A stretch of DNA of 64,000 bases. Source: a virus. Taxonomy: Duplodnaviria > Caudoviricetes. A program made the position numbers and the translations under genes. The notes under the pieces were generated by a model. It saw nothing but the letters and a program-made list of their open reading frames with translations, made no database searches and was not told the origin of the DNA. The stretch is from the IMG/VR virus record IMGVR_UViG_2627853630_000004, positions 1 to 64,000 of that record. One strand, 5' to 3'. Below are positions 29,919 through 44,364 of the stretch, piece after piece. How positions within the stretch are numbered: position 1 is the stretch's first letter; the number at the start of each line of letters is the position of its first letter.

Positions 29919-30200
29919 TTAGAAAGGTTTGTTAATAATTCTCTGAAATTTATAAAGCTCATTCTCAAAGGTTTCAATCTTACTCTCTTTATCACTTACC
30001 TGTCCCGAGGCCTCATCAGCACAAATGAATGCTGCACTTAATTTATCCTGAGCATACTCACTAAGCGAGCTATTTATCTTATTTTTCAAACCATTAAAAT
30101 TTGAAATATCATTTTTTGCTGATGATTTCGTATTGGATCTGGATATATTTCTTAACAATCTAGCTATTTCATTAAAATCACTTTCGTTTAGTTGATTCAT
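29919..30200 (-). CDS. AT-rich hypothetical protein (moron)
   Basis: AGGAG RBS; 93 aa. Confidence 0.6.
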   Translation of the reverse strand: MNQLNESDFNEIARLLRNISRSNTKSSAKNDISNFNGLKNKINSSLSEYAQDKLSAAFICADEASGQVSDKESKIETFENELYKFQRIINKPF

Positions 30201-30229
30201 CTCTGTTCTCCTTGTGACATGTCACAGAA

Positions 30230-30577
30230 CTATATATCTAATTTTATTTCATGCCACCCGCTTGTATTCCAGCAATCAGAATCACCGCTCATGCAGCATG
30301 ATGCTACTGGCAACGACTCACCGCATTTCCCGCAGCATTGGCGGTTGAGCGACTGAATACGCTGGCGCACTCTGGCATCATCTTGCCGTATCAGCAGTTG
30401 GATATATTCATCCATGTCATAGGGTTCCTTACCCGGACGGCGTAGCACACAATTGCGGCGCAACATATCAAGTTCCTGAGCATCAAGATTCAGTTCCAGC
30501 TTGGTTACGCCAGCCTCCCGCTGGCGCTCACGTTGTGCTCTTTTACGTGCGGCGGCACGCTCTTTAGTGTCTGTCAT
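30230..30577 (-). CDS. hypothetical phage protein with C-terminal Cys cluster
   Basis: AAARKRAQRERQ, RRPGKEPY, CGKCGE...C...GDSDCW; ATGA overlap with the methyltransferase gene. Confidence 0.7.
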   Translation of the reverse strand: MTDTKERAAARKRAQRERQREAGVTKLELNLDAQELDMLRRNCVLRRPGKEPYDMDEYIQLLIRQDDARVRQRIQSLNRQCCGKCGESLPVASCCMSGDSDCWNTSGWHEIKLDI

Positions 30578-32742
30578 GCAGCCACCTGCCATGCGCAGTA
30601 TTCGGGCAAGTTTGCAGCAACTAATGCCCTTGCCTCTGTTGGGCAGACGGCATTGCCGCAACGTGCTACCTGATCTTTCTGTGATATTGGGTTTCCATCT
30701 GGATCGCGATCGATAATGTAATCAGGCGGGAATCCTTGAGCGTTATACAACTCGCGTGGCGATAGCATCCGCATGCAAATATCGATGATGACGTAATCAC
30801 CAACGCGCAGGTATTGACGCCGCGGGGCTGGGAATAGATGGGGGTCATCAGGTAAATCACTGTACGCCTCAAACAGCCGAGCGCAGCACCATGCGTTATA
30901 TCGTTGTTCGTCAGTTAATGGCTGTATTTCGCATTCAACTTCAGTCAGTCCGAATCGATCCCGCGTCGGAATTGTGTGCATCGGTTCAGTGATAGAAACG
31001 CCGTCACGCTCATTGCCGTAGTATTTTGTCAGATACGCCTGAACATGCCCGACATGTTGACCACCAGCGGTGATTGTTGGTACCGGCTCTGTTGATTGCT
31101 GCCCATCTTGGCAGGTTCCACGCAACTTGATGAGGTGTGATGAGCACAAGGAATGATGATCGACCTGAGTTACTGTATGCAGCGGTTCATCCATGCAACA
31201 ACCTGGCCCAGAGTAACCACCGCCGTAATGCTTAATCAGGTTGGCTGCGATAACAGCTTTATGTGATGACGTCGGTACCGTGTCGTATGGCGCGTTAATG
31301 TCACGCGGTTTTCCCGAATACTTGGGGCCACCAGCACCAACCAAAATTGCAGATAATAACTGGCTCTTTCCACCGCCCCCCGCAGTGACAGTTCCTAGCG
31401 GGGTATCTACGGGGTTAGCTGTGCTATTACCGAACTGACGTACAACCACAGGAGCGGCAATACTAAATCCGTGCGCCTGCGTTATCGTCTGTAATGGCTC
31501 CCGCAACGATTGACCTCGGAAACAGTCGTACGCACTGCGATTGCTGGTGTGATTACACTTAACGGCGAATGGCTCTATCAGCAGATGTTCCGCTTTGCTG
31601 GTGACGGTCGTAATGGGCTGATTTACGGAATACGACAGCCGGTCACCACCGAAACCAGTTTGCCCAATCCGCACGATATACGGCTCAGGGTTATTAATCA
31701 CAAACCGATCCAAACCCCGAACGATGCGTTTTAACGTATTGTCTGCCAGCGGCTTTTTCCGGCCTAAAATGGAACGTGTCGGTAGTGGCCAGTCAATGCA
31801 ATCAGCAGCTGTTCGCCACGGTTTTAAATTGCCCTCGGAAAATTCCTTCGATCGTGGATCACCATACTCCGCTGCTGGCCACTCAACTGGCCGCCCGTCG
31901 CATCGTGCAACAACATACAGGCGCTTTCTGATAGTCGGCGCGCCAGACATGTACGCCTTGCGCTCCCTGTGATCAACGTTGTAACCCAAGCCCTTAACCA
32001 ATTTTTTGGCATCAGGGCCGTTAATGTCGATATTCAGGAATTCGCAACACTCAGCCAGCGCCGGATGATTCGCGGGAATGCCAGTGCTCAACATGCCAAT
32101 AAACGCGTTAAATGTTTCACCTCTTTTGGCTGGGTCTGGGTAATAGTTACCCGCCTTTTCAACCAATGGCCCCCATGACCGGAACTCTTCAACGTTCTCC
32201 ATCATCAGCACGCGCGGACGGGTCGCCAGCGCCCAGCGCAGAATCACCCACGCCAAACCGCGTATCTCCTTCTTAACTGGCGTGCCGCCCTTCGCTTTTG
32301 AGAAGTGACGGCAGTCTGGCGAAAACCAGCCGAGCAATACAGGCAGACCACCCGTTGAGACAACCGGATCGACGCTGAAGATGTCTTCGGGGTAATGCAG
32401 CGTACGCGGGTGATTCATTGCGTGCATCGCCATCGCTACAGGATTGTGATTCATTGCGATGTGCGGCTCGAATCCTAACGCTTGTTTGATGCCCTCGCAG
32501 CTCCCGCCGCCACCAGCGAAACCGACAACCACCAGCCCGTTTTCAACATCAGGCCGAGCGATTTCTATCGCTTGGCGCCGCGCCCATTTGTGAGCCGCCT
32601 TTTGAATGTCTGCCGGGTTTTCTCTGCGTAAAAACATTCCGTGCATTTCTGAGAGAAGCGCCTCTCGGCGCTCCGGTGATAATTGATGAACGGGTATCAC
32701 GGATGAGGCGCATTGCTTAACTTCTGTAGGCCAATCACTCAT
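30574..32742 (-). CDS. DNA cytosine-5 methyltransferase (large, repeat-containing)
   Basis: Motif I FAGGGG, IV SPDC, VI ENVEEF, VIII RKR, IX RMLSPREL..AQGFP, X GNAV. Confidence 0.9.
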   Translation of the reverse strand: MSDWPTEVKQCASSVIPVHQLSPERREALLSEMHGMFLRRENPADIQKAAHKWARRQAIEIARPDVENGLVVVGFAGGGGSCEGIKQALGFEPHIAMNHNPVAMAMHAMNHPRTLHYPEDIFSVDPVVSTGGLPVLLGWFSPDCRHFSKAKGGTPVKKEIRGLAWVILRWALATRPRVLMMENVEEFRSWGPLVEKAGNYYPDPAKRGETFNAFIGMLSTGIPANHPALAECCEFLNIDINGPDAKKLVKGLGYNVDHRERKAYMSGAPTIRKRLYVVARCDGRPVEWPAAEYGDPRSKEFSEGNLKPWRTAADCIDWPLPTRSILGRKKPLADNTLKRIVRGLDRFVINNPEPYIVRIGQTGFGGDRLSYSVNQPITTVTSKAEHLLIEPFAVKCNHTSNRSAYDCFRGQSLREPLQTITQAHGFSIAAPVVVRQFGNSTANPVDTPLGTVTAGGGGKSQLLSAILVGAGGPKYSGKPRDINAPYDTVPTSSHKAVIAANLIKHYGGGYSGPGCCMDEPLHTVTQVDHHSLCSSHLIKLRGTCQDGQQSTEPVPTITAGGQHVGHVQAYLTKYYGNERDGVSITEPMHTIPTRDRFGLTEVECEIQPLTDEQRYNAWCCARLFEAYSDLPDDPHLFPAPRRQYLRVGDYVIIDICMRMLSPRELYNAQGFPPDYIIDRDPDGNPISQKDQVARCGNAVCPTEARALVAANLPEYCAWQVAA

Positions 32743-32821
32743 GATCCACCACCTGATTTTTATCAGAGCGAACGACAGTCGCGCCTAGCACGTTTAATTG
32801 AGTGGTTGATAGCGTGGTCAT
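32735..32821 (-). CDS. 28-aa leader-like ORF overlapping the methyltransferase start
   Basis: MTTLSTTQLNVLGATVVRSDKNQVVDHE*, preceded by GAGGCAAGACCAA. Confidence 0.45.
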   Translation of the reverse strand: MTTLSTTQLNVLGATVVRSDKNQVVDHE

Positions 32822-33072
32822 TTGGTCTTGCCTCGTTTTTGGTCGTGATATTCGCGCCAGTAATTTAAGCGCGCTCTAAAATGTTCCCGATACTGCTCCG
32901 CTACCGTGTCCAGCTCTTTTTCAACGTTCCGGCGCAGGGCTTTTCCTGCTATGAGTTGATTTATTAACTGGTTGGCGCGCAGGTCTAGCCATTCCATATC
33001 CCTGAATTCCTGCGGCCACTCACCACGGTTATGAGGCAGTCCGGGCGGCAGGTAATCTGATTGCCCGGACAT
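32818..33072 (-). CDS. hypothetical phage protein
   Basis: SDYLPPGLPHNR.EWP; lies in the pR operon. Confidence 0.65.
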   Translation of the reverse strand: MSGQSDYLPPGLPHNRGEWPQEFRDMEWLDLRANQLINQLIAGKALRRNVEKELDTVAEQYREHFRARLNYWREYHDQKRGKTK

Positions 33073-33075
33073 GGG

Positions 33076-33462
33076 TTATGCCTCTATGGGTTTTATCGTG
33101 TCGAGAAGAAGACGGGCGCGAGTCGGACCACCAGCGCGGGTGCCAGTGTCCTTGTAATAAAACTCGCCAGTGCCAACCACCCACGTAGTCGGGGTTTCAC
33201 GTAATTTAACCGTGCGTTCCCCGCCCACACGGACAACGGTTCCCGTGTGGGTTTTCTTTGTTGTCAGCCGTTTCTTACCTGACGTTTTCGGGAGTGGGGA
33301 AAATTTCGGCGCAACAACTTGCCGCGGCGCGGGAGCTGGCACGTACGGTGAGCGTGTGCGAGCGCGGGCGTTTGCGTTCATAGCCCAAAGAATTGGGCCG
33401 GTGTGGTCGCAGCCGTCATCGGTCATGAATGCGCGTGCGTAAATAACATCAGTTGTAATCAT
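33076..33462 (-). CDS. hypothetical phage protein
   Basis: VKLRETPTTWV...Y.KDTG.R...RLLLDTIKP; start abuts AGGCAAGACC. Confidence 0.68.
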   Translation of the reverse strand: MITTDVIYARAFMTDDGCDHTGPILWAMNANARARTRSPYVPAPAPRQVVAPKFSPLPKTSGKKRLTTKKTHTGTVVRVGGERTVKLRETPTTWVVGTGEFYYKDTGTRAGGPTRARLLLDTIKPIEA

Positions 33463-33508
33463 GGTCTTGCCTCTTTTTTTGGTCGGTTAAGCGCTGGTCA
33501 GGCGCGGT

Positions 33509-34921
33509 TTAAAATTCTTCAATCGGTTGTTTCTTGCTGTATCGCCTGTCTTTCTCCTGCCCTTTCTCTGCCAGCGATCGAGCCTCATTCGTTGGGATAT
33601 TCTTGATATATCCATCAATCATCTGTGCGTACGCTGTTCCGCTCGGCCCCTCACGATTCAGTCGCACAATGAGTTCCATTAGGGTTTTATCCGCCTGCTC
33701 GTTGTAGACAGCGTCACGGTATAGCCCGATCCAAACATCACAATCCTGTTCGATCTGGCCGGTGTCTTTACTGTCTGAGGGCTGTGGCCGTTTGTCCGCG
33801 CGCTCTTCCAGTTTTCGGTTTAACTGCGTCAGCAGCAGCACGATGCAATCCAATTCTTTAGCCAGATTTTTTAAGCCGGTTGTTATCGCGCCGTAACTGA
33901 TGTCGCGGCGTTCCGCTTCCTCGCCTTTCATCAGTGTTAGGTAGTCCACAGCGACTAAACCAACGTGCCCCCGCTGACGTTTAACTTTTCTGCTCTCTGC
34001 TACGATATGGGCAAGTGACACGCCCGGCGTACTGTCGATCATCAGATTTGATTCGGACAGTTCAGCGGCTTTAGCCATTGCCAGCGCCATTTTTGAATCG
34101 TCGTATTCGCCGTTGTAAAACAGGTTTGAACTGATGAGCGCCTCTTGTGCGATCATTCGTTCAATAATCCCCCTGTCAGTCATTTCAAGGCTGAAAACCA
34201 GCGACGGGAGGCGATGATTTAATGCGAAATGCGTAGCGATTTTGTTGTATGTCGCGGTCTTACCCATTTTCGGGCGTGCCCCAACCACGATGAGTGAGCC
34301 ACGCAACGCTTGCTTAGGTGCCATGATTTCATCCAGCCCCTCAATGCCGAGCGTCAAGCCAGCTCCACCCGCAGGATCACTAAATCGGCGCTCAATCTCA
34401 TCAACCCAATCGCCAACGACATCAGTCGCAGGCCGCAACCCTCCCCTACGTCCAGTGCTGGCATGATCGACAACAGCGGTGATCATTTGCTGCACGCTGC
34501 TTAATCGGCTTTCGACTGTAGCGCCGCCGCTGGAGCTGACGATCTCAATGCATGAGTAGAGTTTTTCCAGCGTATAGCGCAGCACTGCTTTTTCACGCAC
34601 GATGCGAGCGTATGCGAGTGTGTTTGCAGCTACTGGCACCCGTGCCATTTCAGCCAGATATGCCATTCCCCCAACGGTCACCAATTCACCGTTTGATTCG
34701 AGTAATTCACTCAGGGTTATCAGGTCGGTCGGCTTTTCAGATCGCGACAGTTCAACCAGACGACGATAAATAATTTGATGTGCGCGCAGATAAAACGACT
34801 CAGCTTTCAGCAGGGACATCACAGCATGGCGGCGCTCATCGTCAGTATTCAGCATCAACCCGCCGATAACGGCCTGCTCTGCTGATGAGCTGTGCGGAAC
34901 AACAGGAATATCATTGGTCAT
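33509..34921 (-). CDS. dnaB: replicative DNA helicase, DnaB family
   Basis: PHS..AEQAVIGG, GARPKMGKT, FSLEM, VDYL, QLNR.LE.RADKRP..SD, GQIEQDCD. Confidence 0.95.
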   Translation of the reverse strand: MTNDIPVVPHSSSAEQAVIGGLMLNTDDERRHAVMSLLKAESFYLRAHQIIYRRLVELSRSEKPTDLITLSELLESNGELVTVGGMAYLAEMARVPVAANTLAYARIVREKAVLRYTLEKLYSCIEIVSSSGGATVESRLSSVQQMITAVVDHASTGRRGGLRPATDVVGDWVDEIERRFSDPAGGAGLTLGIEGLDEIMAPKQALRGSLIVVGARPKMGKTATYNKIATHFALNHRLPSLVFSLEMTDRGIIERMIAQEALISSNLFYNGEYDDSKMALAMAKAAELSESNLMIDSTPGVSLAHIVAESRKVKRQRGHVGLVAVDYLTLMKGEEAERRDISYGAITTGLKNLAKELDCIVLLLTQLNRKLEERADKRPQPSDSKDTGQIEQDCDVWIGLYRDAVYNEQADKTLMELIVRLNREGPSGTAYAQMIDGYIKNIPTNEARSLAEKGQEKDRRYSKKQPIEEF

Positions 34922-35681
34922 TAGCGCGCTCCTCTTTCACGGCGACATAGCAACGCTCAGTAACCAGGTAATCGATGTTTTTGCGTTTCCAGAATCCACC
35001 CCGCCCATTAGATCGGTCTTCCATCATCCAGCGGCAATGCACGGAGATATATTTCAAATAGGCCTGCCAACGCTCAGGAGTGAACTGGAATTTTTTCCAG
35101 AACGCTCGGATCGTTTTTTTTCTCGCGTCAGTCAAAATCTGAACGCGTGGCATGTCTGGAAGGGTTTCGTGGTACACATCCAGAATTTTTTGATAATCAA
35201 TTTTTTCAGCTGGCGGATTATCTGCTGGTGGAGCAGGCTCGCCTGATTCACCAATAACAGGTTCATTGACTGGTTCAGAAGGGTGACTGGTTCTGGTGCC
35301 ATCTGACGCCACAGGGGGTGTGCTTTCTGGTGGTACAGGTGGGTTTTCTGGTGACTCACCTGTGTTTTCTGACACCACAGGGGCTGTGATTTTTGGTGGC
35401 ACAGGGTTATCGAGCGTCAGATAGTAAACGTTCGACGTGTTCCCCTTCCCATTATTCTCACCGAGCCTGTTTTCTTTTGACAGAAAACCCATTTTTATCA
35501 ATGCGGTGATGTGTGCTTTAACGGCACTTTTGCTGCACTCGCACTGATCCGCAACATGCTGATATGACGGCCAGCACTCACCTTTGTCATTCGCGTTATC
35601 GGCCAGCTTAATGAGAACCAGCTTTCGCAGTGGGTTACCGACTTTGCGGCTCATGGCTTTTGCCATTAGGTTCATGCTCAC
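34911..35681 (-). CDS. replication initiator with N-terminal HTH
   Basis: KLVLIKLADNANDKGECWPSYQHVA; Pro-rich repetitive centre (likely ori iterons, ~35310-35405). Confidence 0.85.
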   Translation of the reverse strand: MSMNLMAKAMSRKVGNPLRKLVLIKLADNANDKGECWPSYQHVADQCECSKSAVKAHITALIKMGFLSKENRLGENNGKGNTSNVYYLTLDNPVPPKITAPVVSENTGESPENPPVPPESTPPVASDGTRTSHPSEPVNEPVIGESGEPAPPADNPPAEKIDYQKILDVYHETLPDMPRVQILTDARKKTIRAFWKKFQFTPERWQAYLKYISVHCRWMMEDRSNGRGGFWKRKNIDYLVTERCYVAVKEERANDQ

Positions 35682-35682
35682 G

Positions 35683-35910
35683 CTACACCCCCAGCGATTC
35701 CGCTAACTGACGGCACGCATCCTGATATTCGTCCGGCGATAGATTCATCTCACGCAATTCCGATTTGCGCTGTTCGTATTGCTCCCATACAGAGAGCGCT
35801 TCAGCCCTGCGGCCATCAAAGACAGGTTCAATATCACTGACGCTGGCTGGTTCGCCATTCAGCAAAAAGCCGTTCCTGTACGTGATTCGAATTCGGATCC
35901 TGGTGTGCAT
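35683..35910 (-). CDS. hypothetical phage protein
   Basis: Start reassigned to the ATG at 35910 behind GAGGCAAGACCA. Confidence 0.6.
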   Translation of the reverse strand: MHTRIRIRITYRNGFLLNGEPASVSDIEPVFDGRRAEALSVWEQYEQRKSELREMNLSPDEYQDACRQLAESLGV

Positions 35911-35932
35911 TGGTCTTGCCTCGCTATGCAAC

Positions 35933-36385
35933 TTATGCAACTAACTGCTGAGTAACTGGCAACAGCGCATACATCGCCTCTGTCGCTTTATTTATTCGTT
36001 GTGACATGTCACAGCATCCGAGCAGCACAGCATTCATCGCTGTGGAAAATTCACGGATGGCCACTGCCGTCAGGTAGTTAACAGATCGGTCATTCTGCAA
36101 ACGTGCCCGTCGTTCCCCCGGTAGAGCTGCAAGCATCACCGGAGCCAGCAACTGGACTTTTCTCTGTGCTGCGCGTGAGTCACTACGCAACCAGCGGAAA
36201 ATCTGCTGCCTGTTGTTATTTATCGATTTCCAGTCAGCAACGCCGCGCTGCTCGATTTCATGCAGCCGGATATGTGGATCGCCACCAGCCAGAAAAAATC
36301 GTTTGGTTATCTCGATCGCTACAGTTTCCTGTCCTGCATCAACCGCCCATGATTCGATCTCGTTCTTCAGCTCCTGAATATTCAT
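35933..36385 (-). CDS. CII-equivalent transcription activator, YdaT family
   Basis: W....GQETVAIEIT, NNRQQIFRWL; position after cro; TTGATT-N6-AATCA site just upstream. Confidence 0.78.
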   Translation of the reverse strand: MNIQELKNEIESWAVDAGQETVAIEITKRFFLAGGDPHIRLHEIEQRGVADWKSINNNRQQIFRWLRSDSRAAQRKVQLLAPVMLAALPGERRARLQNDRSVNYLTAVAIREFSTAMNAVLLGCCDMSQRINKATEAMYALLPVTQQLVA

Positions 36386-36403
36386 TGCGTCTCCTGTCGC
36401 AAA

Positions 36404-36421
36404 TTGATTTTTGATAATCAG
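36404..36421. promoter_or_regulatory. YdaT/CII-type binding site (pRE position)
   Basis: TTGATT-TTTGAT-AATCAG between cro and the ydaT-like gene. Confidence 0.7.
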
Positions 36422-36440
36422 ATTTACGCTGATATATCCG

Positions 36441-36635
36441 TCATTGTTTTCGGTACAGTTCCGGGTTGAATTTGAGTTCTCCGTTAGTTCTGATAGCGGC
36501 TTCTGTGGCTCGGCCTTTTGGGATTAGTTTTCCCTCTCGGGTTCGCCACTGATAAATAGCCTCAGTACTCACTTCAAAGAACTGAGCAACCTTCTCAACT
36601 GTTCCGAAATACTCTTCAATTTCGGTTGTAGTCAT
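36441..36635 (-). CDS. cro: Cro-like repressor
   Basis: 64-aa HTH (YFG...KVAQFFEVSTEAIYQW...IPKGRA), divergent from CI. Confidence 0.85.
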   Translation of the reverse strand: MTTTEIEEYFGTVEKVAQFFEVSTEAIYQWRTREGKLIPKGRATEAAIRTNGELKFNPELYRKQ

Positions 36636-36650
36636 TACGCCTCCCGTTAA

Positions 36651-36713
36651 CTAAGTTTGATTAGACATTAACACCTAATCAAACTTAGATCAACGAGTGC
36701 TAAGATAAGTTAG
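36651..36713. promoter_or_regulatory. OR operators and pR
   Basis: Three CTAA-N6-TTAG palindromes (36651-36664, 36675-36688, 36700-36713); minus-strand TTGATC-N17-TAATGT (36693-36665). Confidence 0.78.
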
Positions 36714-36732
36714 TTATTTTTATTTGGTGCGC

Positions 36733-37359
36733 ATGATGGAATCTGTAGGGCAACGAATTAAGCGATTACGAAAAATGACAAAAACGTCTCAAAAGGATTT
36801 GGGGCGCTACTGTGGTGTCTCTGATGTTGCTGTTGGTTATTGGGAAAAAGACATTAACTCACCCAGTGGGGAGCCCGTTTCCAAGCTAGCCAAATTCTTT
36901 AACACCAGCGTTGACTACATTTTGTATGGCACGAAGTTTGAGGGTGAGTTGATCACTAGCGTTCGCAGGGTTCCAGTTCTTTCGTGGGTACAAGCTGGGT
37001 TATTCACTGAATCAACATCGGACCTTATTGATGATTCAACCGAGTGGATTGAAACCGCAGCACCGCTATCAGGGCGAGCATTTGCATTACAGGTTCGTGG
37101 GGATTCAATGACTAACCCTAACGGGCTTCCCTCAATACCTGAAGGGGCGATTGTATTTGTTGATCCAGAGGTGGTGGCAGAAAGCGGGCGGATCGTCGTA
37201 GCGCGACTCAATGGCACATCAGAAGCCACTATTAAAAAACTTGTTATAGATGGCCCAACAAAATTACTCGTTCCCCTAAACCCTCGCTACCCCACACTAA
37301 CGATCAATGGTAATTGCATCATCATTGGCGTAGTTAAAAGCGTTCAGTACACTCTTTAA
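36733..37359 (+). CDS. cI: CI repressor (HTH plus S24 peptidase)
   Basis: HTH N-terminus, VQAG cleavage site, VRGDSM catalytic Ser, TIKKL catalytic Lys. Confidence 0.93.
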   Translation: MMESVGQRIKRLRKMTKTSQKDLGRYCGVSDVAVGYWEKDINSPSGEPVSKLAKFFNTSVDYILYGTKFEGELITSVRRVPVLSWVQAGLFTESTSDLIDDSTEWIETAAPLSGRAFALQVRGDSMTNPNGLPSIPEGAIVFVDPEVVAESGRIVVARLNGTSEATIKKLVIDGPTKLLVPLNPRYPTLTINGNCIIIGVVKSVQYTL

Positions 37360-37390
37360 CCCTCCCTCAGCATAAGCGAAAAACCGATAA

Positions 37391-37441
37391 CTAAGTTTAA
37401 TTCGGTTTTTTGTTGACATAAAATCTAAGTTAAATTAGATT
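37391..37441 (+). promoter_or_regulatory. OL operators and pL
   Basis: CTAAGTTTAATTCG (37391) and CTAAGTTAAATTAG (37425); TTGACA(37413-37418)-N17-TAGATT(37436-37441). Confidence 0.82.
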
Positions 37442-37643
37442 AAATCCATCAACAGCGAACAGGCAGGACGCCCACGAAGTAGCCGCTACCGGCGTATGAA
37501 CAGGTAGATGATTCGCTAAGTAAGGCAAGACCAACCCACGCCGCAGACCACGCTCTATGAGTGGCGACGTGGGAAAACAACCAGGCGCAGTTGCGCTGTT
37601 TGGGTAACACGTTCTGACAGCGGGAAAGACCGCAAATTAATTC

Positions 37644-37719
37644 GGCCCCTTAGCTCAGCGGTTAGAGCTATCCCCTCATAAGGGATTGGTCACTGGTTCA
37701 AATCCAGTAGGGGTCACCA
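37644..37719 (+). tRNA. tRNA with CAT anticodon, Ile2 (lysidine)-type body
   Basis: 76-nt cloverleaf GGCCCCTTAGCTCAG...ATCCC-CTCATAA-GGGAT...GGTTCAAATCC...GGGGTCACCA; acceptor and D arms resemble ileX. Confidence 0.9.
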
Positions 37720-37722
37720 AAT

Positions 37723-37781
37723 TAGCGATCAGGTGATTAACGGGTTTCCCTGCTCGTTACCCGGTTCGACTCCGGGCGCTA
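37723..37781 (+). ncRNA. truncated tRNA-like element
   Basis: T-arm CCCGG-TTCGACT-CCGGG, closing TAGCG/CGCTA, inner stem TAACGGGT/GCTCGTTA; no CCA and no proper D arm. Confidence 0.45.
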
Positions 37782-37884
37782 TTCGAAATCACGTTGCCAT
37801 CGTGATAACTGCGAGAGGTGTGTAGTCATTGGGCGGTGTGGGTTTTTGATCTTTCCCCTATCCGCCAATTTTTTTCGCAGACGT

Positions 37885-38010
37885 AAAAAAGCCCGCCTTG
37901 CGGCAGGCTTAGTTACCTCGGATAACCGACCAAAGTATTTCCGAGAGGTTTGCGGCGCTTACCAGGCGCCGCAAGGCAAGACCAATACCAACTAACGCTG
38001 ATACTGATCA
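37885..38010 (-). ncRNA. predicted trans-acting antisense sRNA (~125 nt)
   Basis: TATAAT at 38022-38017, two hairpins, then GCCTGCC-GCAA-GGCGGGC-T6 terminator (37910-37885); carries the complements of the repeated RBS motifs. Confidence 0.6.
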
Positions 38011-38033
38011 GCCGTGATTATACGAGGAACGCT

Positions 38034-38327
38034 ATGAAAGCGCCAGATATCACAACCACGCTGTACCTCCATCTCAACGCATTTACATCTGAACCGTTAA
38101 TTTGCACATGTGACATGTCACATTTTGGTCATGCGTTAATTTCAACGTGTGAAGTCTCCGTGCCATTTCCTGAAATAACCCCCGAATACCTTGCAGAACG
38201 CAAGATGTCAGCGTTACGGGAACAGCAACAAAAAATTCTCTCTGACGCTCAAATCAAGGCGAATGAACTGGAAGACCAGGTTCAGAAATTGCTGTGCGTT
38301 GAGCGCCAGAACAGCACCATTAAGTGA
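38034..38327 (+). CDS. hypothetical phage protein
   Basis: GAGG RBS, CDMS motif, coiled-coil C-terminus. Confidence 0.65.
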   Translation: MKAPDITTTLYLHLNAFTSEPLICTCDMSHFGHALISTCEVSVPFPEITPEYLAERKMSALREQQQKILSDAQIKANELEDQVQKLLCVERQNSTIK

Positions 38328-38337
38328 GGGTGAAGAC

Positions 38338-38622
38338 GTGGGTGATGTAGGTGATTACTACAGGGACTTAAAGCCGTACTTGAAGGAGCAGCGTCGAAAA
38401 GCACGAGATGGTGCATATGGGCGTATCAAAGCGTTCTTTGTTAGAAATGGTGTTCAGTTGGAAGAAGGAAATAACACACTAATTTTCCGCACACCACAAG
38501 GCACTGTTTGCTACTACCCACCAAGCCAGAGGATGCAGCACAAGCAATTATGGAAAGAATGCAGCCCGACCAGCTGCATGAACTATGTGAAAAAACTAAG
38601 AACTGAGAGGCAAGACCAATGA
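38338..38622 (+). CDS. hypothetical phage protein
   Basis: GTG start with GAGG RBS (MGDVGDYYRDLK); ATGA overlap with the next gene. Confidence 0.6.
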   Translation: MGDVGDYYRDLKPYLKEQRRKARDGAYGRIKAFFVRNGVQLEEGNNTLIFRTPQGTVCYYPPSQRMQHKQLWKECSPTSCMNYVKKLRTERQDQ

Positions 38623-40802
38623 CAACAGCAACATTTACCGCTGCTTTCTTTCCAAAGAAATCAGCTCAAAAAAATGGCGCGATACCGCTAGCAACAGCGA
38701 TCGAAGCAAAAAGCAAAAAACTGGCAGAAATGGCAGCAGTTATGCTGCTGGAAGAAACATTCCCTGGTGCCAGTGATAACTTCTTTAAACCAACCATCAC
38801 CGAGGATTCGATCGGTTCACCCCGTCCAGCCGTTGGAACGTTCGATGAGACATTCCTACAGGAAAATGAGCTGGTAGAGGGCGTCTGGCGGCGCATCGAG
38901 GCACCGACTCAGCCTAACGATCTCGTCGATTTCTCCACCCTCTCTTTGCGTGAAAAAATCGCGGCGTTTGCGTTGTATGCGCAATCTGAAATCACCGAGC
39001 ATGAATTCTCTATGGTGTGTGATTATCTCGATCTGCCGGATTTCGATGGCGATGGGGATACTAACGCAGACACGGACAAACTGATCCGCATACTCAGCGG
39101 TATTGAATTGTTGGAACAGGCTACTGACGAATTGCTACTCAGCGTAGTAAATGCCGTTAACGCTCGGTTCCCATCTATCGCAGATGTTGCGGATCGTGAA
39201 ATTCTGGCCTTTGTTGATACGTTAACATGCGCGCCCGGCGAAAATGACACGCAAGCGACAAAGCCGCTGATCGCTGGATTGGATCGTGAACGCCAGTACA
39301 CGCATACGCATCGAACATTAAACCGAGAAGTCGCCCTGTTCCTGGCTAACGACAACATCACAGATCCGTGGGAAGTAACAGAAGAACAGAAGGTTGCGGG
39401 TGATCAGGTGATGAAAAGCGGTGGTGACACGTATTCACGATGGTCAACCGAGTTGAGTATGGTTGAGGGCGCGTTAAAAATCCCCCGCCCCATAGTTTTC
39501 ATCTTGATAAATGAGGCCAAGAAACGCCCTGAATTATTGCTAGATGCAAACGCGCGTCAGCGGTTCGTTGTTGATTTTCTGGCTGAGCACACACCATCAG
39601 AAATCAAAGTTGAAAGCATGGGCAGCGGACGATTCTCTATTGATGGCCTGATGGGTGAAACCGCATCAAATCAGGGAGAAAAAACGGAAGTGGTCAGCAC
39701 GCCTGAGGCTGAAACAAAACAGACTGAAGCCGTTAACCCGCCAGCAGAAACCATTACGCAGCAGGCCAGCACCGAAGCTGGTGAGCAGATCATTAGCGAC
39801 GGCACAGTGCAGCAGGCAAAAGAAGCGCTCGATCAGCTGGGGTACGGCGTTTACGCGACAGAAACGGACGCACCAGCACCAGCACCAGCACCAGCAGACG
39901 ATTTTCAGCAAAGAGCTGAAGCCATTGAAGCCGAGATCGCCAAAAAACCAGACGCGGCACGCGGCAATCTATCTATTTGGCAGGGTGTCCAGAGAACCAA
40001 CCCTGCGCACACAAGGCGGAAAGAAACATGGAAGTGGGTTAACGGAAAACAAGAGCTATTGCGCGCAGTCACTAGCGTCAACCCTACGTACCAAATAATG
40101 AGAGCCACAGAAGTATTTGGACCGTTCGGGTTAGGTTGGGGGGTGGAAGTTACAGAGGAGCGATTCGATCCCGGATTACCACTAATGGAGCCAGTCTTTG
40201 ATAGCTCAGGGAGAGAGATAAACCGAAAACCCATGCGTGATGGTGATGGATCACTTGTCAGGGCGCTAAACCACACAATGCAAATACGATTATGGTACGT
40301 GCTGGATGGTGTGCGCGGAGAGTTTCCCGCTTTCGGGCATACGAAATATCTCTATGCAAAGAATAGTGGTGGCATGGTGTGTGACGATGAAGTCGGTAAA
40401 AAAAGCCTGACAGATGCCATCACAAAAGGGCTGTCAGCGCTTGGCTTTAGCGCCGATATCTACATGGGCATGTTTGATGATGACGAATATAAGAATAAAA
40501 ACGAAGCGGAATTCGGCATCAAAAACGCAAGTGACAAAGCCGAAGACGTGGTGCGTTTTCGCTCTGAGCTGGATGAGAAATTCACACGGAACGCGGCAAC
40601 GATGGAGACGACAGTCAGCGTCAATGAACTCAATAAGGTGTTTGGAGTTCTCGTACGTGAGATCGAAACACATCGTAAAGATGCAGAGGCAAAAGGTGAT
40701 ACAGAATACGCAAAATATCTATCTAGTCGTCTGCGTCGCCTTACTGAAATAAAAAGCGAGCGTGAAAAAGCACTCAAGGCCACTGAAGGGGAAAAAGCAT
40801 GA
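38619..40802 (+). CDS. recombination protein: RecE-like N-terminus fused to a Rad52/Sak-like annealing domain
   Basis: N-terminal KKSA.K.G...IEAKSKK; C-terminal TEVFGP.G.GWG, KKSLTDA..K.LS.LGFSADIYMG.FDD. Confidence 0.65.
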   Translation: MTTATFTAAFFPKKSAQKNGAIPLATAIEAKSKKLAEMAAVMLLEETFPGASDNFFKPTITEDSIGSPRPAVGTFDETFLQENELVEGVWRRIEAPTQPNDLVDFSTLSLREKIAAFALYAQSEITEHEFSMVCDYLDLPDFDGDGDTNADTDKLIRILSGIELLEQATDELLLSVVNAVNARFPSIADVADREILAFVDTLTCAPGENDTQATKPLIAGLDRERQYTHTHRTLNREVALFLANDNITDPWEVTEEQKVAGDQVMKSGGDTYSRWSTELSMVEGALKIPRPIVFILINEAKKRPELLLDANARQRFVVDFLAEHTPSEIKVESMGSGRFSIDGLMGETASNQGEKTEVVSTPEAETKQTEAVNPPAETITQQASTEAGEQIISDGTVQQAKEALDQLGYGVYATETDAPAPAPAPADDFQQRAEAIEAEIAKKPDAARGNLSIWQGVQRTNPAHTRRKETWKWVNGKQELLRAVTSVNPTYQIMRATEVFGPFGLGWGVEVTEERFDPGLPLMEPVFDSSGREINRKPMRDGDGSLVRALNHTMQIRLWYVLDGVRGEFPAFGHTKYLYAKNSGGMVCDDEVGKKSLTDAITKGLSALGFSADIYMGMFDDDEYKNKNEAEFGIKNASDKAEDVVRFRSELDEKFTRNAATMETTVSVNELNKVFGVLVREIETHRKDAEAKGDTEYAKYLSSRLRRLTEIKSEREKALKATEGEKA
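39870..39896 (+). repeat. (GCACCA)4.5 microsatellite encoding an Ala-Pro linker
   Basis: GCACCAGCACCAGCACCAGCACCAGCA, in frame. Confidence 0.85.
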
Positions 40803-41380
40803 GCAGAATTCACCACAACACGGCAATAGCAATTGCCGCTGATATGTCAAAGCTCCAAAGCCTACTGGAAGATTCTGAGGGTGGTATTGGAGAATTAACG
40901 CCAGAAATGATCGAAGACACAATGTCCGGTCTGGAAATGACGCTGGCGGATAAATTAGATTCCGTTCTGGTTCACGTTAGAAACCTGGAAGGTCAAGAGG
41001 AAACCTGCGACAAAGAAATTAAGCGCCTAAGTGATCGTAAAAAATCATTCCGCAACCAGGCAAAGCATCTGAAGCAATACATTTTAAATTGCCTGCTGGC
41101 GGCCAATCTCGACAAAATCAAAACAACAAAGAACACATTTACTGCGCGAAAAGGCGTGGTAAATGTGGTTATCGATAATGAATCACTTGTGCCTGACGAA
41201 TTCGTTAACTTACAGACAATCATAACGCCAGACAAGAAAGCCATTAAGGAGGCCATAGAATCCGCAGAGGCGGCGGTCGTGGAAATCACCGCGCGTGGCG
41301 AAACCCCTCCGGCTGAGTTGTTAAATCCGGTACCCGGTGCGCACATTGAAATCGGTGCGCGTTCTCTGCAAGTGCGGTAA
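40799..41380 (+). CDS. Siphovirus Gp157-family protein
   Basis: EIKRL..RKK......LKQY, PDKKAIKEAI, VPGAHIE....LQVR. Confidence 0.85.
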   Translation: MSRIHHNTAIAIAADMSKLQSLLEDSEGGIGELTPEMIEDTMSGLEMTLADKLDSVLVHVRNLEGQEETCDKEIKRLSDRKKSFRNQAKHLKQYILNCLLAANLDKIKTTKNTFTARKGVVNVVIDNESLVPDEFVNLQTIITPDKKAIKEAIESAEAAVVEITARGETPPAELLNPVPGAHIEIGARSLQVR

Positions 41381-41415
41381 CGGCTGACCACCGTATAGCA
41401 AGCGAGGCAAGACCA

Positions 41416-41592
41416 ATGCTAAAAATGAGCGCGCAGCGCGGGGACGTTATTCATATTGTTTTTGCTGATGGCCGGAATGGAATGATCGCAGTTCAATCAC
41501 GCAGTGTGCTGGCGATTCATTTTCCGCCAGATGTGAAAATAACGCGTGAACGTCGCCAGCAGGAAAAACTGATTAACGATAATCAGAAATAA
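41416..41592 (+). CDS. CsrA/RsmA-like small protein (58 aa, absent from the ORF track)
   Basis: MLKMSAQRGDVIHI...VLAIHFPPDVKITRE aligns without gaps to CsrA at M1, L2, G9, I14, P37, V40, R44, E45. Confidence 0.65.
   Translation: MLKMSAQRGDVIHIVFADGRNGMIAVQSRSVLAIHFPPDVKITRERRQQEKLINDNQK
41569..41586. promoter_or_regulatory. second YdaT/CII-type site (pI-like)
   Basis: CTGATT-AACGAT-AATCAG upstream of the orf-xis-int genes. Confidence 0.6.
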
Positions 41593-41639
41593 CCCGCCAT
41601 TAGCAATACCGTGTGACCTCCATTTTACAGGGGGTCACA

Positions 41640-41846
41640 ATGCAAGTATGGAAACCGGGCAAGTGCCTGTTATCTGAGTTCGATATTAAAATCGGTCGGC
41701 TGTCTGCAAGCGTAAGGAAGACCACTCTAACGCAACAGGATATAGACCAGTCTTGTGCAGCAGCCGACGCAATCATTGATAAATTAAGGCAAGACCATGA
41801 CCGACCTGTTAACCGACGACGAGCTAATAGAACTGACAGGCTATAA
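41640..41846 (+). CDS. small hypothetical phage protein
   Basis: GGGGG RBS; FDIKIGRLSASVR. Confidence 0.55.
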   Translation: MQVWKPGKCLLSEFDIKIGRLSASVRKTTLTQQDIDQSCAAADAIIDKLRQDHDRPVNRRRANRTDRL

Positions 41847-42012
41847 GTATGCGTCGAAGCAACGCGCCGCTCTAACCCGATCCGGCATTTCGTTTATCAC
41901 CCGTAGGGATGGGCGACCCAGCGTCACATGGGCGGCAATTAATGCCAGCCTATCCACTGTGAAAGCTGAGCAATTTAAAGACGTTGAACAGCCTAATTTT
42001 GATGCGATTTAA
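41797..42012 (+). CDS. xis: excisionase-like protein (DUF4224-like)
   Basis: LLT.DELIELTGY...SKQ...L...GI.F..R.DGRP.V, PNFDAI; directly before int. Confidence 0.82.
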   Translation: MTDLLTDDELIELTGYKYASKQRAALTRSGISFITRRDGRPSVTWAAINASLSTVKAEQFKDVEQPNFDAI

Positions 42013-42014
42013 TC

Positions 42015-43040
42015 ATGGCTCGTAAACGTAAAGATCCCCGCGATAACGCATTACCGCCACGCGTATATCGCGGGAAAAGTAAATATGAATTCCACCCGAT
42101 TGGTGGCGGCTCTATTTCACTATGCCCTCTCGATTCCCCCATTCCACTAATCTGGGAGAAATACGACGCGGCAAATAATTATCGCGAGGAAAAATTTACT
42201 CTGGAACGAATGGCCGGGCGATTTATGCAATCACCAGACTTCCTCGATCTCGCGAGTGAAACACAAAAGGACTACCGGAAATACTCTGCGAAAATAATTC
42301 CAGTTTTTGGGGGGATGTCGCCGGATTCGATTAAACCTGAACACATCAGGAAATACATGGATAAACGGGGCGTGAAAAGCAAGACGCAGGCGAACAGAGA
42401 AAAGGCGTTTCTTTCGCGAGTATTTCGGTGGGGATACGAGCGGGGGCTATGTAAAGGCAACCCATGCAAGGGCGTTAAACAGTTCAAAGAGGTGGCGCGA
42501 GATCGTTACGTGACTGATGACGAGTATAACGCCCTGTACTCCGTCGCAGCTCCATTTGTCCAGGTGGCTATGGAAATAGCCTATCTGTGTCTCTCACGGC
42601 AGGGGGATGTTCTCTCGCTGACTGAGGGGCAAATATTAGATCAGGGGATTTTTATCGCTCAGGGAAAAACGGGCGCAAAACAAATCAAGGCATGGACGGA
42701 CAGGCTGAGAGCCGCTGTAACAAATGCACGTAACTTGCCAATAAAACCGGGCATCAGCAGTATGTACATAATCCATCAACCGACCGGAGGGCGCTACACT
42801 CGCGACGGATTCAACAGCCGCTGGCAGCAAGCCAAAGAAGATGCGGCCACGGCGTTCCCACACTTGAGCTTTGATTTCACTTTTCACGATCTCAAGGCTA
42901 AAGGGGTTTCAGATCTCGATGGGACGTTAGCAGAAAAACAGGCAATATCGGGACACATGACAATCAGCCAGACAGCACGATACGACCGAAAGATACCGAT
43001 CGTTCCTGTTGTGGGTGGTCAGAATAAAAATTCAAAATAA
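42015..43040 (+). CDS. int: tyrosine integrase of prophage 1
   Basis: R (SRQGD), K (QGKTG), HDLK, GH, Y (TARYDR); adjacent to att. Confidence 0.93.
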   Translation: MARKRKDPRDNALPPRVYRGKSKYEFHPIGGGSISLCPLDSPIPLIWEKYDAANNYREEKFTLERMAGRFMQSPDFLDLASETQKDYRKYSAKIIPVFGGMSPDSIKPEHIRKYMDKRGVKSKTQANREKAFLSRVFRWGYERGLCKGNPCKGVKQFKEVARDRYVTDDEYNALYSVAAPFVQVAMEIAYLCLSRQGDVLSLTEGQILDQGIFIAQGKTGAKQIKAWTDRLRAAVTNARNLPIKPGISSMYIIHQPTGGRYTRDGFNSRWQQAKEDAATAFPHLSFDFTFHDLKAKGVSDLDGTLAEKQAISGHMTISQTARYDRKIPIVPVVGGQNKNSK

Positions 43041-43103
43041 TTGCATATTCACCAAACACGCAAAAATCATATTAGGAAGAATATTAGGAAAGGCGGTTTT
43101 AGG

Positions 43104-43229
43104 TACAAAAAAACCGCCTTTCGGCGGTCTACGACATTGCACATAAGTGCTTGTTTTAATTCGTATTAAATCAATGGTGCCCGGGGCGGGACTTGAACCC
43201 GCACAGCGCGAACGCCGAGGGATTTTAAA
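43104..43229 (-). repeat. att site copy 2 (tRNA-Leu 3' half at 43175-43229): junction of prophage 1 and the P2-like prophage
   Basis: Direct repeat of 208-333; includes the ACCGCC-GAAA-GGCGGT-T7 terminator. Confidence 0.92.
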
Positions 43230-43359
43230 AAGTTACACCACATCAAATAAAACAATAGGTTAAGTGATATCAAATGGTTGCGCATACGCAATAACACGAA
43301 ATTTCACGCCACTCCTGTTTTTGCTGCCACCGAAAAACGAGATTCCGCCACTACAATTA

Positions 43360-44364
43360 TTAATCTGTAGTTAATGAATCGAACGGGTTTAAGGTAACAG
43401 CCGCATCCAGATGATCCGGTGCAAAATGGGCGTAACGCATCGTCATGGTGATCGTGCTGTGACCTAAAATCTGTTGCAGTACCAGAATATTTCCGCCGTT
43501 CATCATGAAGTGTGATGCGAATGAGTGACGTAAAACGTGGGTAAGTTGCCCGCTAGGTAGCTCAATGCCAGCCCGTTTAATGGCGTACTTGAAAGACTCA
43601 TAAGCTGGGGTGAAAAGCGAACCACGCTTCTTAGGCAAAAGGCTGCGCATCTTCTCAGAAATTGGCACCGTTCTGTTTTTATTCCCTTTCGTTCTGGTGA
43701 ACGTGACGCGGCTTGGCAGGATTTGAGATTGCTTTAAATCCTGTGCTTCACTCCACCGCGCTCCTGTCGCCAGGCATAGACGAACGATGATACCCAAATC
43801 CTTATTGTCTGATTCGTCACATGCAGTCAGCAGGCGCTTTATTTCATCGGGATAAAGAAATGCCAGTTCCTGATCCCCCTCTTTGAACTGGCGTATGCCG
43901 TCCAATGGATTTTCTTTATCCCACTCCCCCATCCTTTTCAACTCGGAAAAGACCGCGCGTAGGTAAGAGTATTCACGGTTGACCGTCGCTTCTTTCAGAA
44001 CGGCTTTACCCTTTGGATTCCACTCACCTTTAAGGCGTCGTTCGCGATACACGGCAAACATATTTTTATCAACGTCGATAGCAAACGGATCACCCAAGCG
44101 TTCACAGATAGCGAGTAATTTCGTGTAGCGGGAATCACCGGACGATAACGTTTTGCCGTGCATGTCATACCAACGCTGAACCAAATCTTTCAGAGTGATA
44201 TTACTGGTTGTGGTATCAATGCCTTTTTTATCGGCCATAAGGCGGCGCTCATAGGAAAGCGCCTCACCACGGGTGGCAAACTGTTTGCGGATGCGTTTAC
44301 CATCACGGCCATAAGGGAAGCACTGGCAAAGCCATTTGCCGGATGGAAGTTTACTTACAGCCAT
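43360..44364 (-). CDS. int: P2/186-type tyrosine integrase
   Basis: TGARWSEA, TKGNK.R, HVLRHSFASHFM, LGH...MTMRYAH. Confidence 0.95.
   Translation of the reverse strand: MAVSKLPSGKWLCQCFPYGRDGKRIRKQFATRGEALSYERRLMADKKGIDTTTSNITLKDLVQRWYDMHGKTLSSGDSRYTKLLAICERLGDPFAIDVDKNMFAVYRERRLKGEWNPKGKAVLKEATVNREYSYLRAVFSELKRMGEWDKENPLDGIRQFKEGDQELAFLYPDEIKRLLTACDESDNKDLGIIVRLCLATGARWSEAQDLKQSQILPSRVTFTRTKGNKNRTVPISEKMRSLLPKKRGSLFTPAYESFKYAIKRAGIELPSGQLTHVLRHSFASHFMMNGGNILVLQQILGHSTITMTMRYAHFAPDHLDAAVTLNPFDSLTTD

Follow-up and report, generated by a model that had tools for sequence, protein, structure and literature searches.

A start-site motif in the early operons of ZF40-like prophages is probably the target of a phage-encoded small RNA

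Why should the early genes of two divergent operons carry the same eleven letters at their translation starts? The window analysed here, a 64,000-nucleotide stretch of a ZF40-like provirus, contains eight exact copies of AGGCAAGACCA (Table 1) against 0.00 expected from 100 dinucleotide shuffles, and every copy lies on the sense strand of the local operon. Allowing one mismatch across the window still yields 8 matches against 0.97 expected, while two mismatches give 16 against 15.1, the 8 extra matches being at chance level. The full provirus record of 75,339 bases holds the same eight copies and none besides. The original prediction had listed these copies with their positions and strands, had seen none outside a 9-kb region and had called for exact and one-mismatch scans of this genome, which bear it out. 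It was equally right in placing six copies on starts: they overlap the SD-to-ATG interval of early cistrons, and the motif ends at −1, 0 or +1 nt relative to the ATG. A G mostly precedes the motif, so that it reads GAGG followed by a fixed 8-nt spacer, and the motif is largely unpaired in local folds. Since it is found in non-coding DNA as well as inside upstream ORFs, in two frames, the constraint is on the nucleotides.

The 28-aa leader ORF ends in a stop codon overlapping the ATG of the MTase (32742), and its motif copy also encodes the last residues of an upstream theta-like ORF in another frame. The 128-aa ORF is followed by this theta-like ORF, the 75-aa ORF by an O-like initiator and DnaB, with ORFs that abut or overlap, the 727-aa ORF by an overlapping Gp157/Gam-like ORF, and xis by int. 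The copy before the 727-aa ORF also encodes C-terminal residues of the ORF upstream, and that before xis falls within an upstream ORF of 68 aa that is conserved. We found no Pfam match for the 727-aa ORF, and PHROGs alone calls it an exonuclease, which corrects the name recombinase that it had been given.

Table 1. Features of the early region (window positions; duplex energies are for the sRNA seed, in kcal/mol)
Feature	Position	Strand	Basis and remarks
Motif, start of 28-aa leader ORF (ATG 32821)	32823..32833	-	exact scan; duplex -25.9
Motif, start of 128-aa ORF (ATG 33462)	33462..33472	-	exact scan; duplex -23.3
Motif, start of 75-aa ORF (ATG 35910; phrog_2465)	35911..35921	-	exact scan; duplex -28.5
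PL-like sigma-70 promoter, TTGACA-17-TAGATT	37413..37441	+	best of 4 promoter-like sites, 10/12
Motif lacking an ATG, leader of PL-like operon	37523..37533	+	exact scan; duplex -24.8
Putative unannotated small RNA gene, ~125-130 nt	~37883..38012	-	covariance model, fold, promoter and terminator signals; start inferred
Non-coding motif, reverse complement of sRNA seed	37974..37984	+	followed by ATA; 76 such copies in 76 loci
TATAAT, -10 hexamer of putative sRNA promoter	38017..38022	-	-10-like hexamer in 17/17 aligned homologues
Motif, start of 727-aa ORF (ATG 38619)	38608..38618	+	exact scan; duplex -29.7
Motif, start of 58-aa ORF (ATG 41416; phrog_2482, unknown function)	41405..41415	+	exact scan; duplex -30.7
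Motif, start of xis (ATG 41797; DUF4224/excisionase)	41787..41797	+	exact scan; duplex -30.9

The remaining two copies, at 37523 and 37974, had been described as non-coding. Both indeed lack an ATG; they differ in kind, the former lying in the PL-like leader and the latter being the antisense of the seed of a small RNA. The copy at 37974 marks the sRNA gene and is neither a target nor a translation start. Read on the minus strand, this gene carries the exact complement of the motif, and no other anti-motif occurs in the window. We consider it likely that the motif is the target box of this phage-encoded, trans-acting sRNA and defines a multi-gene post-transcriptional regulon; the presence of the same eleven letters on six early-gene ribosome binding sites would then be explained by their exact complementarity to an RNA encoded by the prophage itself.

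The predicted RNA consists, in order, of SL1, an unpaired linker, SL2, SL3 and an intrinsic terminator. The linker is complementary to the SD part of the motif, the 3′ arm of SL1 carries the UUGGUC of the seed, and UUGGUC recurs as the loop of SL3. In the minimum-energy fold (−69.2 kcal/mol, z −7.8, with 0 of 200 shuffles as stable) one half of the seed is engaged in SL1 pairing. As expected of an enterobacterial-type sRNA, the gene has promoter and terminator signals of its own, namely a TATAAT (38022-38017) and a Rho-independent terminator with a U-tract (stem 37910-37889 plus U6), which is predicted to function in the minus-strand direction only and is kept in all 17 aligned homologues. The −10 element reads TGnTATAAT or TGnTATACT in some relatives; there is no recognisable −35, and the promoter scan did not list the sRNA promoter. 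With Rfam 15, positions 30000-44000 searched on both strands at E up to 1 returned tRNA only, c4 and other families being absent. Unstranded RNA contigs from a related lysogen cover the region at a depth of 72-105, together with the adjacent tRNA. The gene is convergent with the PL-like operon and overlaps the 5′ UTR of the 98-aa gene. It also lies within the annotated gp08 ORF of ZF40, the annotation of which is affected for this reason. The PL-like promoter is overlapped by operator-like repeats resembling those between cro and cI, and 37446 is where one RNA contig from a related lysogen begins, which can be taken as a hint only. The motif copy in the leader, ~75 nt into the transcript and upstream of the tRNA, is kept in relatives and is a candidate for an additional sRNA-binding site, either a decoy or a leader target.

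The RNA gene is conserved. A covariance model (R1) matches the window at 37885-38005 with 70.8 bits (E 4.5e-14), 76 of 77 non-redundant motif-bearing sources and 5 of 7 further loci. All 17 homologues fold into four hairpins of this layout and leave the linker unpaired, and a UUGGUC loop is present on SL2 in 71 of 76 and on SL3 in 74 of 76. Covariation is strong in the four hairpins and confined to the minus strand. In the alignment, which was fitted to the model and so favours the structure, pairing is present in 95% of cells and double changes in 25 of 34 pairs; the double-change cells number 379, compared with 121 ± 11 in shuffles (0 of 500 reach 379) and 28-56 in slid controls. Strand specificity is seen in 331 G-U cells versus 12 A-C cells.

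The motif itself is not confined to this genome: ZF40-like prophages of Pectobacterium, Serratia and others share it as a trait of the family. In the relatives the same sequence stands before many different early genes, many of them unrelated, and a sister group has AGGAAAGACCA at all its copies. Among 114 loci with at least three copies, 113 are pure for one type: 67 have the C form only (three of these with one extra T form), 46 the A form only, and one is mixed. The association with starts extends to the relatives, as 63 of 87 copies, counted in loci fetched by protein and not by motif, lie −1 to +3 nt from the ATG of an ORF of at least 25 aa, compared with 4% of random positions.

Seed and motif change together. 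The type of the seed equals that of the motif in 76 of 76 loci (41 C, 35 A), and in 81 of 81 by a regex-based count, with the proviso that C and A may be just two clades and the match may thus rest on very few independent events. A third seed type fits only three of its six motifs at position 11, one of the three being the antisense copy belonging to the sRNA gene. Fourteen of 18 start-associated motifs with one mismatch keep the sRNA pairing through G-U, and the four that break it all do so at the last position. For the window, the seed 20-mer pairs with the six motif-bearing translation-initiation regions at −23.3 to −30.9 kcal/mol, compared with −11.3 ± 3.3 (minimum −23.0) for 90 other such regions. 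These features are those of a trans-acting, base-pairing sRNA, whose seed is conserved, complements several mRNAs at their RBS and covaries with them. Additional contacts may exist further upstream. GACCA is the top 5-mer in the 45 nt preceding the motif (65 of 138 contexts), with GACCA boxes missing from about half of the copies, and complements of 7-12 nt to the SL3 loop region occur in three of the six regions of the window, among them 8 nt to the loop itself located 12 nt upstream of the copy at 32823..32833 and 12 nt located 17 nt upstream of that at 33462..33472.

In the mechanism that we propose, the sRNA would pair with the SD sequence and the start codon of each independently initiated early cistron, the unpaired linker providing the part that pairs with the SD and the 3′ arm of the first hairpin the remainder of the seed. 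The loops of SL2 and SL3 may display UUGGUC to the GACCAA boxes that frequently lie a short way upstream of the motif. Since one RNA matches all six starts, it probably restrains the replication, recombination, methylation and excision genes together. Overlapping downstream ORFs could extend the effect to the O-like initiator, DnaB, the MTase, the Gam-like protein and Int, so that a single RNA would keep the complete early set translationally repressed. Production of the sRNA, repression by pairing and its timing we infer. As a guess, the sRNA would be made in the lysogen and early, and the PL transcript, with its full complement and the leader copy, would titrate it. The post-transcriptional regulon at the core of the original prediction is supported by comparative evidence, since the motif complements a conserved, structured phage sRNA with which it covaries, although one of the copies classed as non-coding is no target and the layer of immunity or timing that was also envisaged is conjecture.

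It is unlikely, in our opinion, that the motif is just an optimised initiation cassette that needs no factor and spreads with gene modules, and that the minus-strand RNA acts only in cis as an antisense to the 98-aa gene. A GAGG spaced normally from the ATG, the unstructured C/A-rich spacer and the overlap of the sRNA gene with the leader of the 98-aa gene would all fit. However, a plain RBS does not need eleven invariant positions, and this explanation leaves unaccounted for the purity of the loci for one type, the constant agreement of seed and motif types and the G-U-compatible variants.

We regard as improbable a second alternative, in which a phage RNA-binding protein, the 58-aa ORF product or another small early protein, reads the motif together with GACCA-loop hairpins in a Csr-like manner. 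Hairpins with CYGACCA loops do occur upstream of three of the eight sites in the window (including CCGACCA, 42 nt upstream of the copy at 38608..38618, and CUGACCA upstream of that at 41405..41415), and the 58-aa protein is predicted to form five beta-strands. Yet the C-type motif and the CYGACCA loops are without the GGA core that characterises a CsrA/RsmA regulon. The label 'CsrA-like' for the 58-aa ORF found no support: CsrA was found neither in Pfam (E up to 0.1; no match to PF02599) nor with a PDB sequence profile (E up to 10), Foldseek gave nothing at E up to 0.001, a comparison with a monomer model, which may miss a swapped-dimer CsrA, and VIA-align gave a top Z of 4.8 to unrelated folds. 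HMMER ties the protein to repeats of giant proteins. Its gene is not preceded by the motif in A-type phages. Among the 76 partial loci compared it was seen in 10 of C type and 23 of A type, as against 76 of 77 sources for the sRNA.

The least probable alternative is an action of the motif as DNA, be it as a module-boundary linker for recombinational shuffling, of the lambdoid kind whose repeats coincide with mosaic junctions, or as an oriented, stoperator-like protein-binding site: many unrelated genes follow the motif, one upstream context recurs on both arms and 8 of 110 homology breakpoints relative to relatives lie at most 12 nt from it (2.3 expected), but the other 102 lie elsewhere, the fixed distance of −1 to +3 nt from the ATG is unneeded for a linker or roadblock, and G-U-type variation and a structured complementary RNA are left unexplained. 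An enrichment of only ~3.5-fold seems low for a mere recombination linker, which the original prediction had itself named as an outcome that would refute it, and shuffling is more likely a by-product.

A trans-acting sRNA with many early targets can be compared with several known systems. The T4 proteins RegA and RegB shut off many early mRNAs at their initiation regions by loose recognition. The candidate factor would likewise have the initiation regions of many early mRNAs as its targets, but is an RNA with an exact match of 11-13 nt. Another parallel is the c4 antisense RNA of P1 and P7 (Citron and Schuster 1990, as summarised in PMC12197685), which like the sRNA described here, given the predicted pairing, is a structured phage-encoded RNA whose exposed sequences pair around the RBS and block translation, and for which specificity differences between related phages define types. 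According to the same summary c4 controls one operon (ant), whereas here six or more starts in two divergent operons would be concerned. OOP RNA of lambda and sar RNA of P22 are also small antisense RNAs of temperate enterobacterial phages directed at early or regulatory mRNAs, but as described there each acts on a single gene that it overlaps or neighbours, with no tag common to many genes (PMC12197685).

Repeats at the starts of phage genes have been on record since 2011, in the form of the SAS of Cluster K mycobacteriophages (PMC3203893). As presented in that account, SAS and our motif are both short asymmetric repeats with an SD core, placed a few nt before the ATG in one orientation, before unrelated families of exclusively non-structural genes, at times overlapping the upstream stop and at part of the sites accompanied by a second upstream element. 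The motif thus has the properties by which SAS are defined; as a member of the class it was rejected, since neither the SAS consensus GGGATAGGAGCCC nor Cluster K is matched, and it is an analogue only. SAS, with 11-19 copies of 13 bp, differ in sequence, phage group and host (PMC3203893). Their authors left open an RNA or a protein factor, favouring DNA-binding proteins for the extended SAS (PMC3203893), and a survey of 2025 still calls the role of SAS unverified (PMC12699233). The passages on SAS in these two papers report no complementary RNA, in contrast to the sRNA matching the motif here. A literature search, with supplementary files outside its scope, found no description of this motif or sRNA.

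A start motif that lacked an explanation now has a concrete partner, a conserved and covarying sRNA with a seed that varies in step with the motif, and a mechanism that can be tested. If correct, a phage sRNA governs not a single gene but a regulon formed by the replication, recombination, methylation and excision genes of the same phage, which matters for how stable such prophages are and how they are induced in Pectobacterium and Serratia; related temperate phages may also be affected in their cross-immunity. More tentatively, and we think this possible but doubtful, the motif and its sRNA might together make up a 'translation lock' private to the phage, which would add a second immunity specificity based on RNA, with the C, A and third seed types as heteroimmune classes that would have arisen by escape. 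The resident sRNA would silence early genes on the prophage's own leaky transcripts and those of an incoming phage with the same motif, until at induction the PL transcript, through its leader copy and the full complement, soaked it up. Should this hold, the same logic may explain start-associated sequences of other phage groups.

An exact scan recovered the eight copies of the 11-mer AGGCAAGACCA, hereafter the stamp, at the same coordinates and on the same strands as in the original prediction, against 0.00 expected from 100 dinucleotide shuffles of the window. Allowing one mismatch added no further site in the window, two mismatches added sites at chance level only, and the whole provirus record of 75,339 bases contains the same eight copies. 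Inspection of flanks and ORFs placed six of them with their end -1, 0 or +1 nt from an ATG (see table; gene names were assigned from Pfam and PHROGs). The unstamped early genes are cI, cro and a cII-like gene (own sites), together with ORFs overlapping or directly adjoining the one before. Since the upstream ORFs read the stamp in two different frames, the constraint acts on the nucleotides and not on the protein.

Coordinates of stamped starts, the sRNA gene and neighbouring features (positions in the window)
Feature	Position	Strand	Remarks
Stamped ATG	32821	-	28-aa ORF (32735-32821), ends 5 nt past the MTase ATG (ATGAGTGA overlap)
Stamped ATG	33462		128-aa ORF
Stamped ATG	35910		75-aa ORF, then O-like initiator and DnaB
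Stamped ATG	38619		727-aa ORF, then overlapping Gp157/Gam-like ORF
Stamped ATG	41416	+	58-aa ORF (41416-41592)
Stamped ATG	41797	+	xis, then int
68-aa ORF	41640-41846	+	conserved, ZF40 gp04-like, overlaps xis start by 50 nt
Leader stamp	37523		
PL-like promoter	37413-37441		bears operator-like repeats
sRNA gene	~38012 to ~37883	-	~125 nt
sRNA TATAAT	38022-38017	-	
sRNA terminator stem	37910-37889	-	intrinsic; followed by six U
Antisense copy of seed	37974-37984		stamp copy
tRNA, CAU anticodon	37644-37719	+	in PL leader, between leader stamp and sRNA gene
Palindrome GTGACATGTCAC	30214-30225, 36001-36012, 38110-38121		perfect; all in or beside early genes
Operator-like inverted repeats (CTAAGTTTGATTAG type)	36636-36723		between cro and cI
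Operator-like inverted repeats (CTAAGTTTGATTAG type)	37385-37445		over PL-like promoter
Spacer-like segment	35875-35908		CRISPR-repeat-like flanks in a related strain

The stamp is not confined to this provirus. Pectobacterium phage ZF40, which matches the window region with 85% identity over 67% of the length, has seven exact and two one-mismatch stamps, at equivalent and at different genes; neither a motif nor a ribosome-binding site is mentioned in the searched part of the text of the ZF40 genome paper (PMC3391216). Five loci retrieved via the 727-aa protein contain 6-9 copies each, and many further stamp-bearing loci came from scans of IMG/VR. The 89 multi-copy loci yielded 208 distinct 116-nt stamp contexts: 161 with an ATG at -1 to +2 and an ORF of 25 aa or more, 19 with an ATG and a short ORF, and 28 without an ATG. 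The N-termini encoded downstream are of dozens of different kinds. Among the 87 stamps of the 15 sources that were chosen without regard to the motif, namely the window and 14 protein-anchored loci, 63 are associated with starts, compared to 4% of random positions. The base preceding the stamp is a G in 117 of 138 contexts, producing GAGG, and the most frequent 5-mer within 45 nt upstream is GACCA, present in 65 of the 138.

Nine loci from named genomes, retrieved via the 58-aa protein family, sort into two stamp types. AGGCAAGACCA, the C type, occurs in Pectobacterium polonicum, Serratia marcescens and one contig labelled Martelella alba; the sister stamp AGGAAAGACCA, the A type, is found at every copy in Serratia rubidaea, S. 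quinivorans, S. grimesii, S. proteamaculans, Raoultella scottii and Enterobacter sichuanensis. Among 114 loci with at least three copies, 67 are purely C type (three of these bear one additional T form), 46 are purely A type and one is mixed. This purity suggests a trans-acting factor specific for each type. The factor could have been a protein, and a window-centred BLASTP comparison yielded no clean candidate tracking the C or A type; this possibility gave way to the sRNA explanation. A role of the stamp as a recombination linker is considered unlikely, homology breakpoints being only weakly enriched at it. Nut-like, boxB-like or promoter readings of the hairpins were set aside in view of the fixed distance of the sites from the ATG before many cistrons. 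As to a complementary RNA, a G-U scan with one mismatch and a contiguous-pairing scan of the window returned only the stamps' own complements, one of which, opposite a single one of the eight copies, proved to lie in the sRNA.

The copy concerned had been classed as non-coding, and it is the reverse complement of the seed of an unannotated small RNA encoded on the minus strand, preceded by a TATAAT hexamer and ending in an intrinsic terminator. The hexamer falls within the leader of a 98-aa gene. Its fold has an energy of -69.2 kcal/mol (z = -7.8) and none of 200 shuffles is as stable; no family in Rfam 15 matches the region. BLAST homologues were found at 25 loci (18 distinct), and a -10-like hexamer and a common fold plan are kept in 17 of 17 aligned sequences. 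The UUGGUC of the seed lies in the 3' arm of the first hairpin, SL1. The linker that follows is unpaired and complements the SD part of the stamp; its sequence is UUGCCUU in the window, UUGCCUC in the majority of C-type homologues and UUUCCUC in A-type phages. The loop of SL2 is UUGGUC (CUGGUAA in the window) and that of SL3 is UUGGUC, after which comes the terminator. The UUGGUC loop is kept in 71 of 76 sequences for SL2 and in 74 of 76 for SL3.

RNAalifold on a MAFFT alignment put SL2 and SL3 out of register; a structure given by hand and a covariance-model alignment were used instead. The model, based on nine homologues, has a single full-length match in 76 of 77 non-redundant stamp-bearing sources, the only one without a match being a 7.8-kb fragment (L057), and also matches five of seven further loci; the window sRNA scores 70.8 bits (E = 4.5e-14). 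In the resulting alignment, which is fitted to the model and leans towards it, 95.0% of the cells pair, both sides have changed in 25 of 34 pairs, and all nine pairs of SL2 covary. The same model-fitted alignment contains 379 double-change cells, versus 121 +/- 11 in shuffles (0 of 500 reach 379) and 28-56 in slid controls. With 331 G-U cells against 12 A-C cells, the structure exists on the minus strand only. On the opposite strand of ZF40 (L009), the annotated gp08 ORF (162 aa, 10613-11101) spans the sRNA gene (10657-10785); the conserved part of gp08 seems to begin ~65 codons later and the annotated start probably lies too far upstream.

The seed is of the same type as all other stamps in each of 76 loci (41 C, 35 A). 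These loci hold 384 stamps, of which 249 are start-associated, 76 represent the sRNA gene itself and 59 are others (leader copies, longer offsets, cut ORFs). Eighteen start-associated stamps carry one mismatch: 14 are C-to-U or A-to-G changes that keep pairing through G-U, compared to 15 G-U-compatible changes among 39 background one-mismatch matches, and the four that break pairing do so, every one, at position 11. We conclude that the RNA gene is conserved, structured and specific to one strand, and that its seed complements the start tag and varies along with it. Duplex prediction between the full-length sRNA and translation-initiation regions failed to discriminate, and a 20-nt seed was used instead. 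Its predicted duplexes with the six stamped starts range from -23.3 to -30.9 kcal/mol (-24.8 with the leader copy), versus -11.3 +/- 3.3 kcal/mol with ninety other starts (minimum -23.0) and -5.2 to -17.3 kcal/mol with the unstamped early genes. In three of the six targets in the window, a stretch of 7, 8 or 12 nt just upstream is complementary to the invariant loop region of SL3; two of these stretches lie in or beside small hairpin loops reading CYGACCA. Scanning for the SL3 pattern, independently of the seed, retrieved 59 new loci, 46 with a G seed, 11 with a T seed and two with a third type. This third seed, UCGGUCUUUCCUA, goes with an altered SL2 loop (GUGGUU) in L345, L365 and L184; it occurs in prophages of the Serratia rubidaea type and was also found in S. 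rubidaea. The stamps that go with it have G, A or C as their last base, and only three of six match the changed end position, one of the three being the antisense copy of the sRNA gene itself.

Pairing with the sRNA is, in our estimation, quite probably the reason for the motif. The original prediction is supported in part: a post-transcriptional regulon covering replication, recombination, methylation and excision is likely, to judge from a conserved sRNA whose seed changes with the stamp. The sRNA is presumably transcribed; its unpaired linker would contact the SD sequence, pairing would run on into the SL1 arm over spacer and ATG, and the loops might kiss GACCAA boxes. Translation would thereby be blocked for all tagged cistrons and for the ORFs coupled to them. 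The sRNA gene and the PL-like operon converge, so that PL transcripts carry the full sRNA complement as well as the leader copy; they could titrate the sRNA after induction, and both this model of the timing and a role of the sRNA in immunity are guesses. In the RNA runs X1-X4, contigs only, from a related lysogen (share of words 0.08), cI is covered most deeply, and 37446-38126 has a depth of 72-105, an unstranded figure without ends that includes the tRNA.

This would be a case of phage control by an antisense or trans-acting sRNA, here multi-target via a shared start tag. In the portions of the sources covered, the mechanism most like it is that of the c4 antisense RNA of P1 and P7, and the closest description of a stamp-like motif is that of the start-associated sequences of Cluster K mycobacteriophages. 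No report of the stamp or the sRNA was found in the literature searched, supplementary files being outside its scope.

The 58-aa ORF had been described as CsrA-like, a reading that is unsupported: no CsrA was found with Pfam, a PDB sequence profile, Foldseek (pdb) or VIA-align (wide; top Z 4.8). An exhaustive HMMER search linked the protein to repeats in giant proteins, and its best remote matches are repeated stretches, 29 of which occur in a 3,251-aa protein (E = 1.2e-26). Two other small ORFs deserve mention. Translation of the MTase is probably coupled to the 28-aa leader peptide. The 68-aa ORF, which contains the xis stamp in frame, is present in 24 loci of the C type and 22 of the A type.

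The tRNA is assigned to Met by ARAGORN, and large phages of Serratia and Erwinia have close matches annotated as tRNA-Met. The palindrome is probably a protein-binding site; relatives have four copies, and with up to two mismatches six sites were found versus 2.5 expected, which is not above chance. cI is followed by a hairpin that T-runs flank on either side. In RNA contigs of a related strain the segment 35875-35908 is flanked on both sides by CRISPR-repeat-like sequence, and this strain thus seems to possess a spacer that targets the 75-aa gene at its 5' end, directly beside the stamp.
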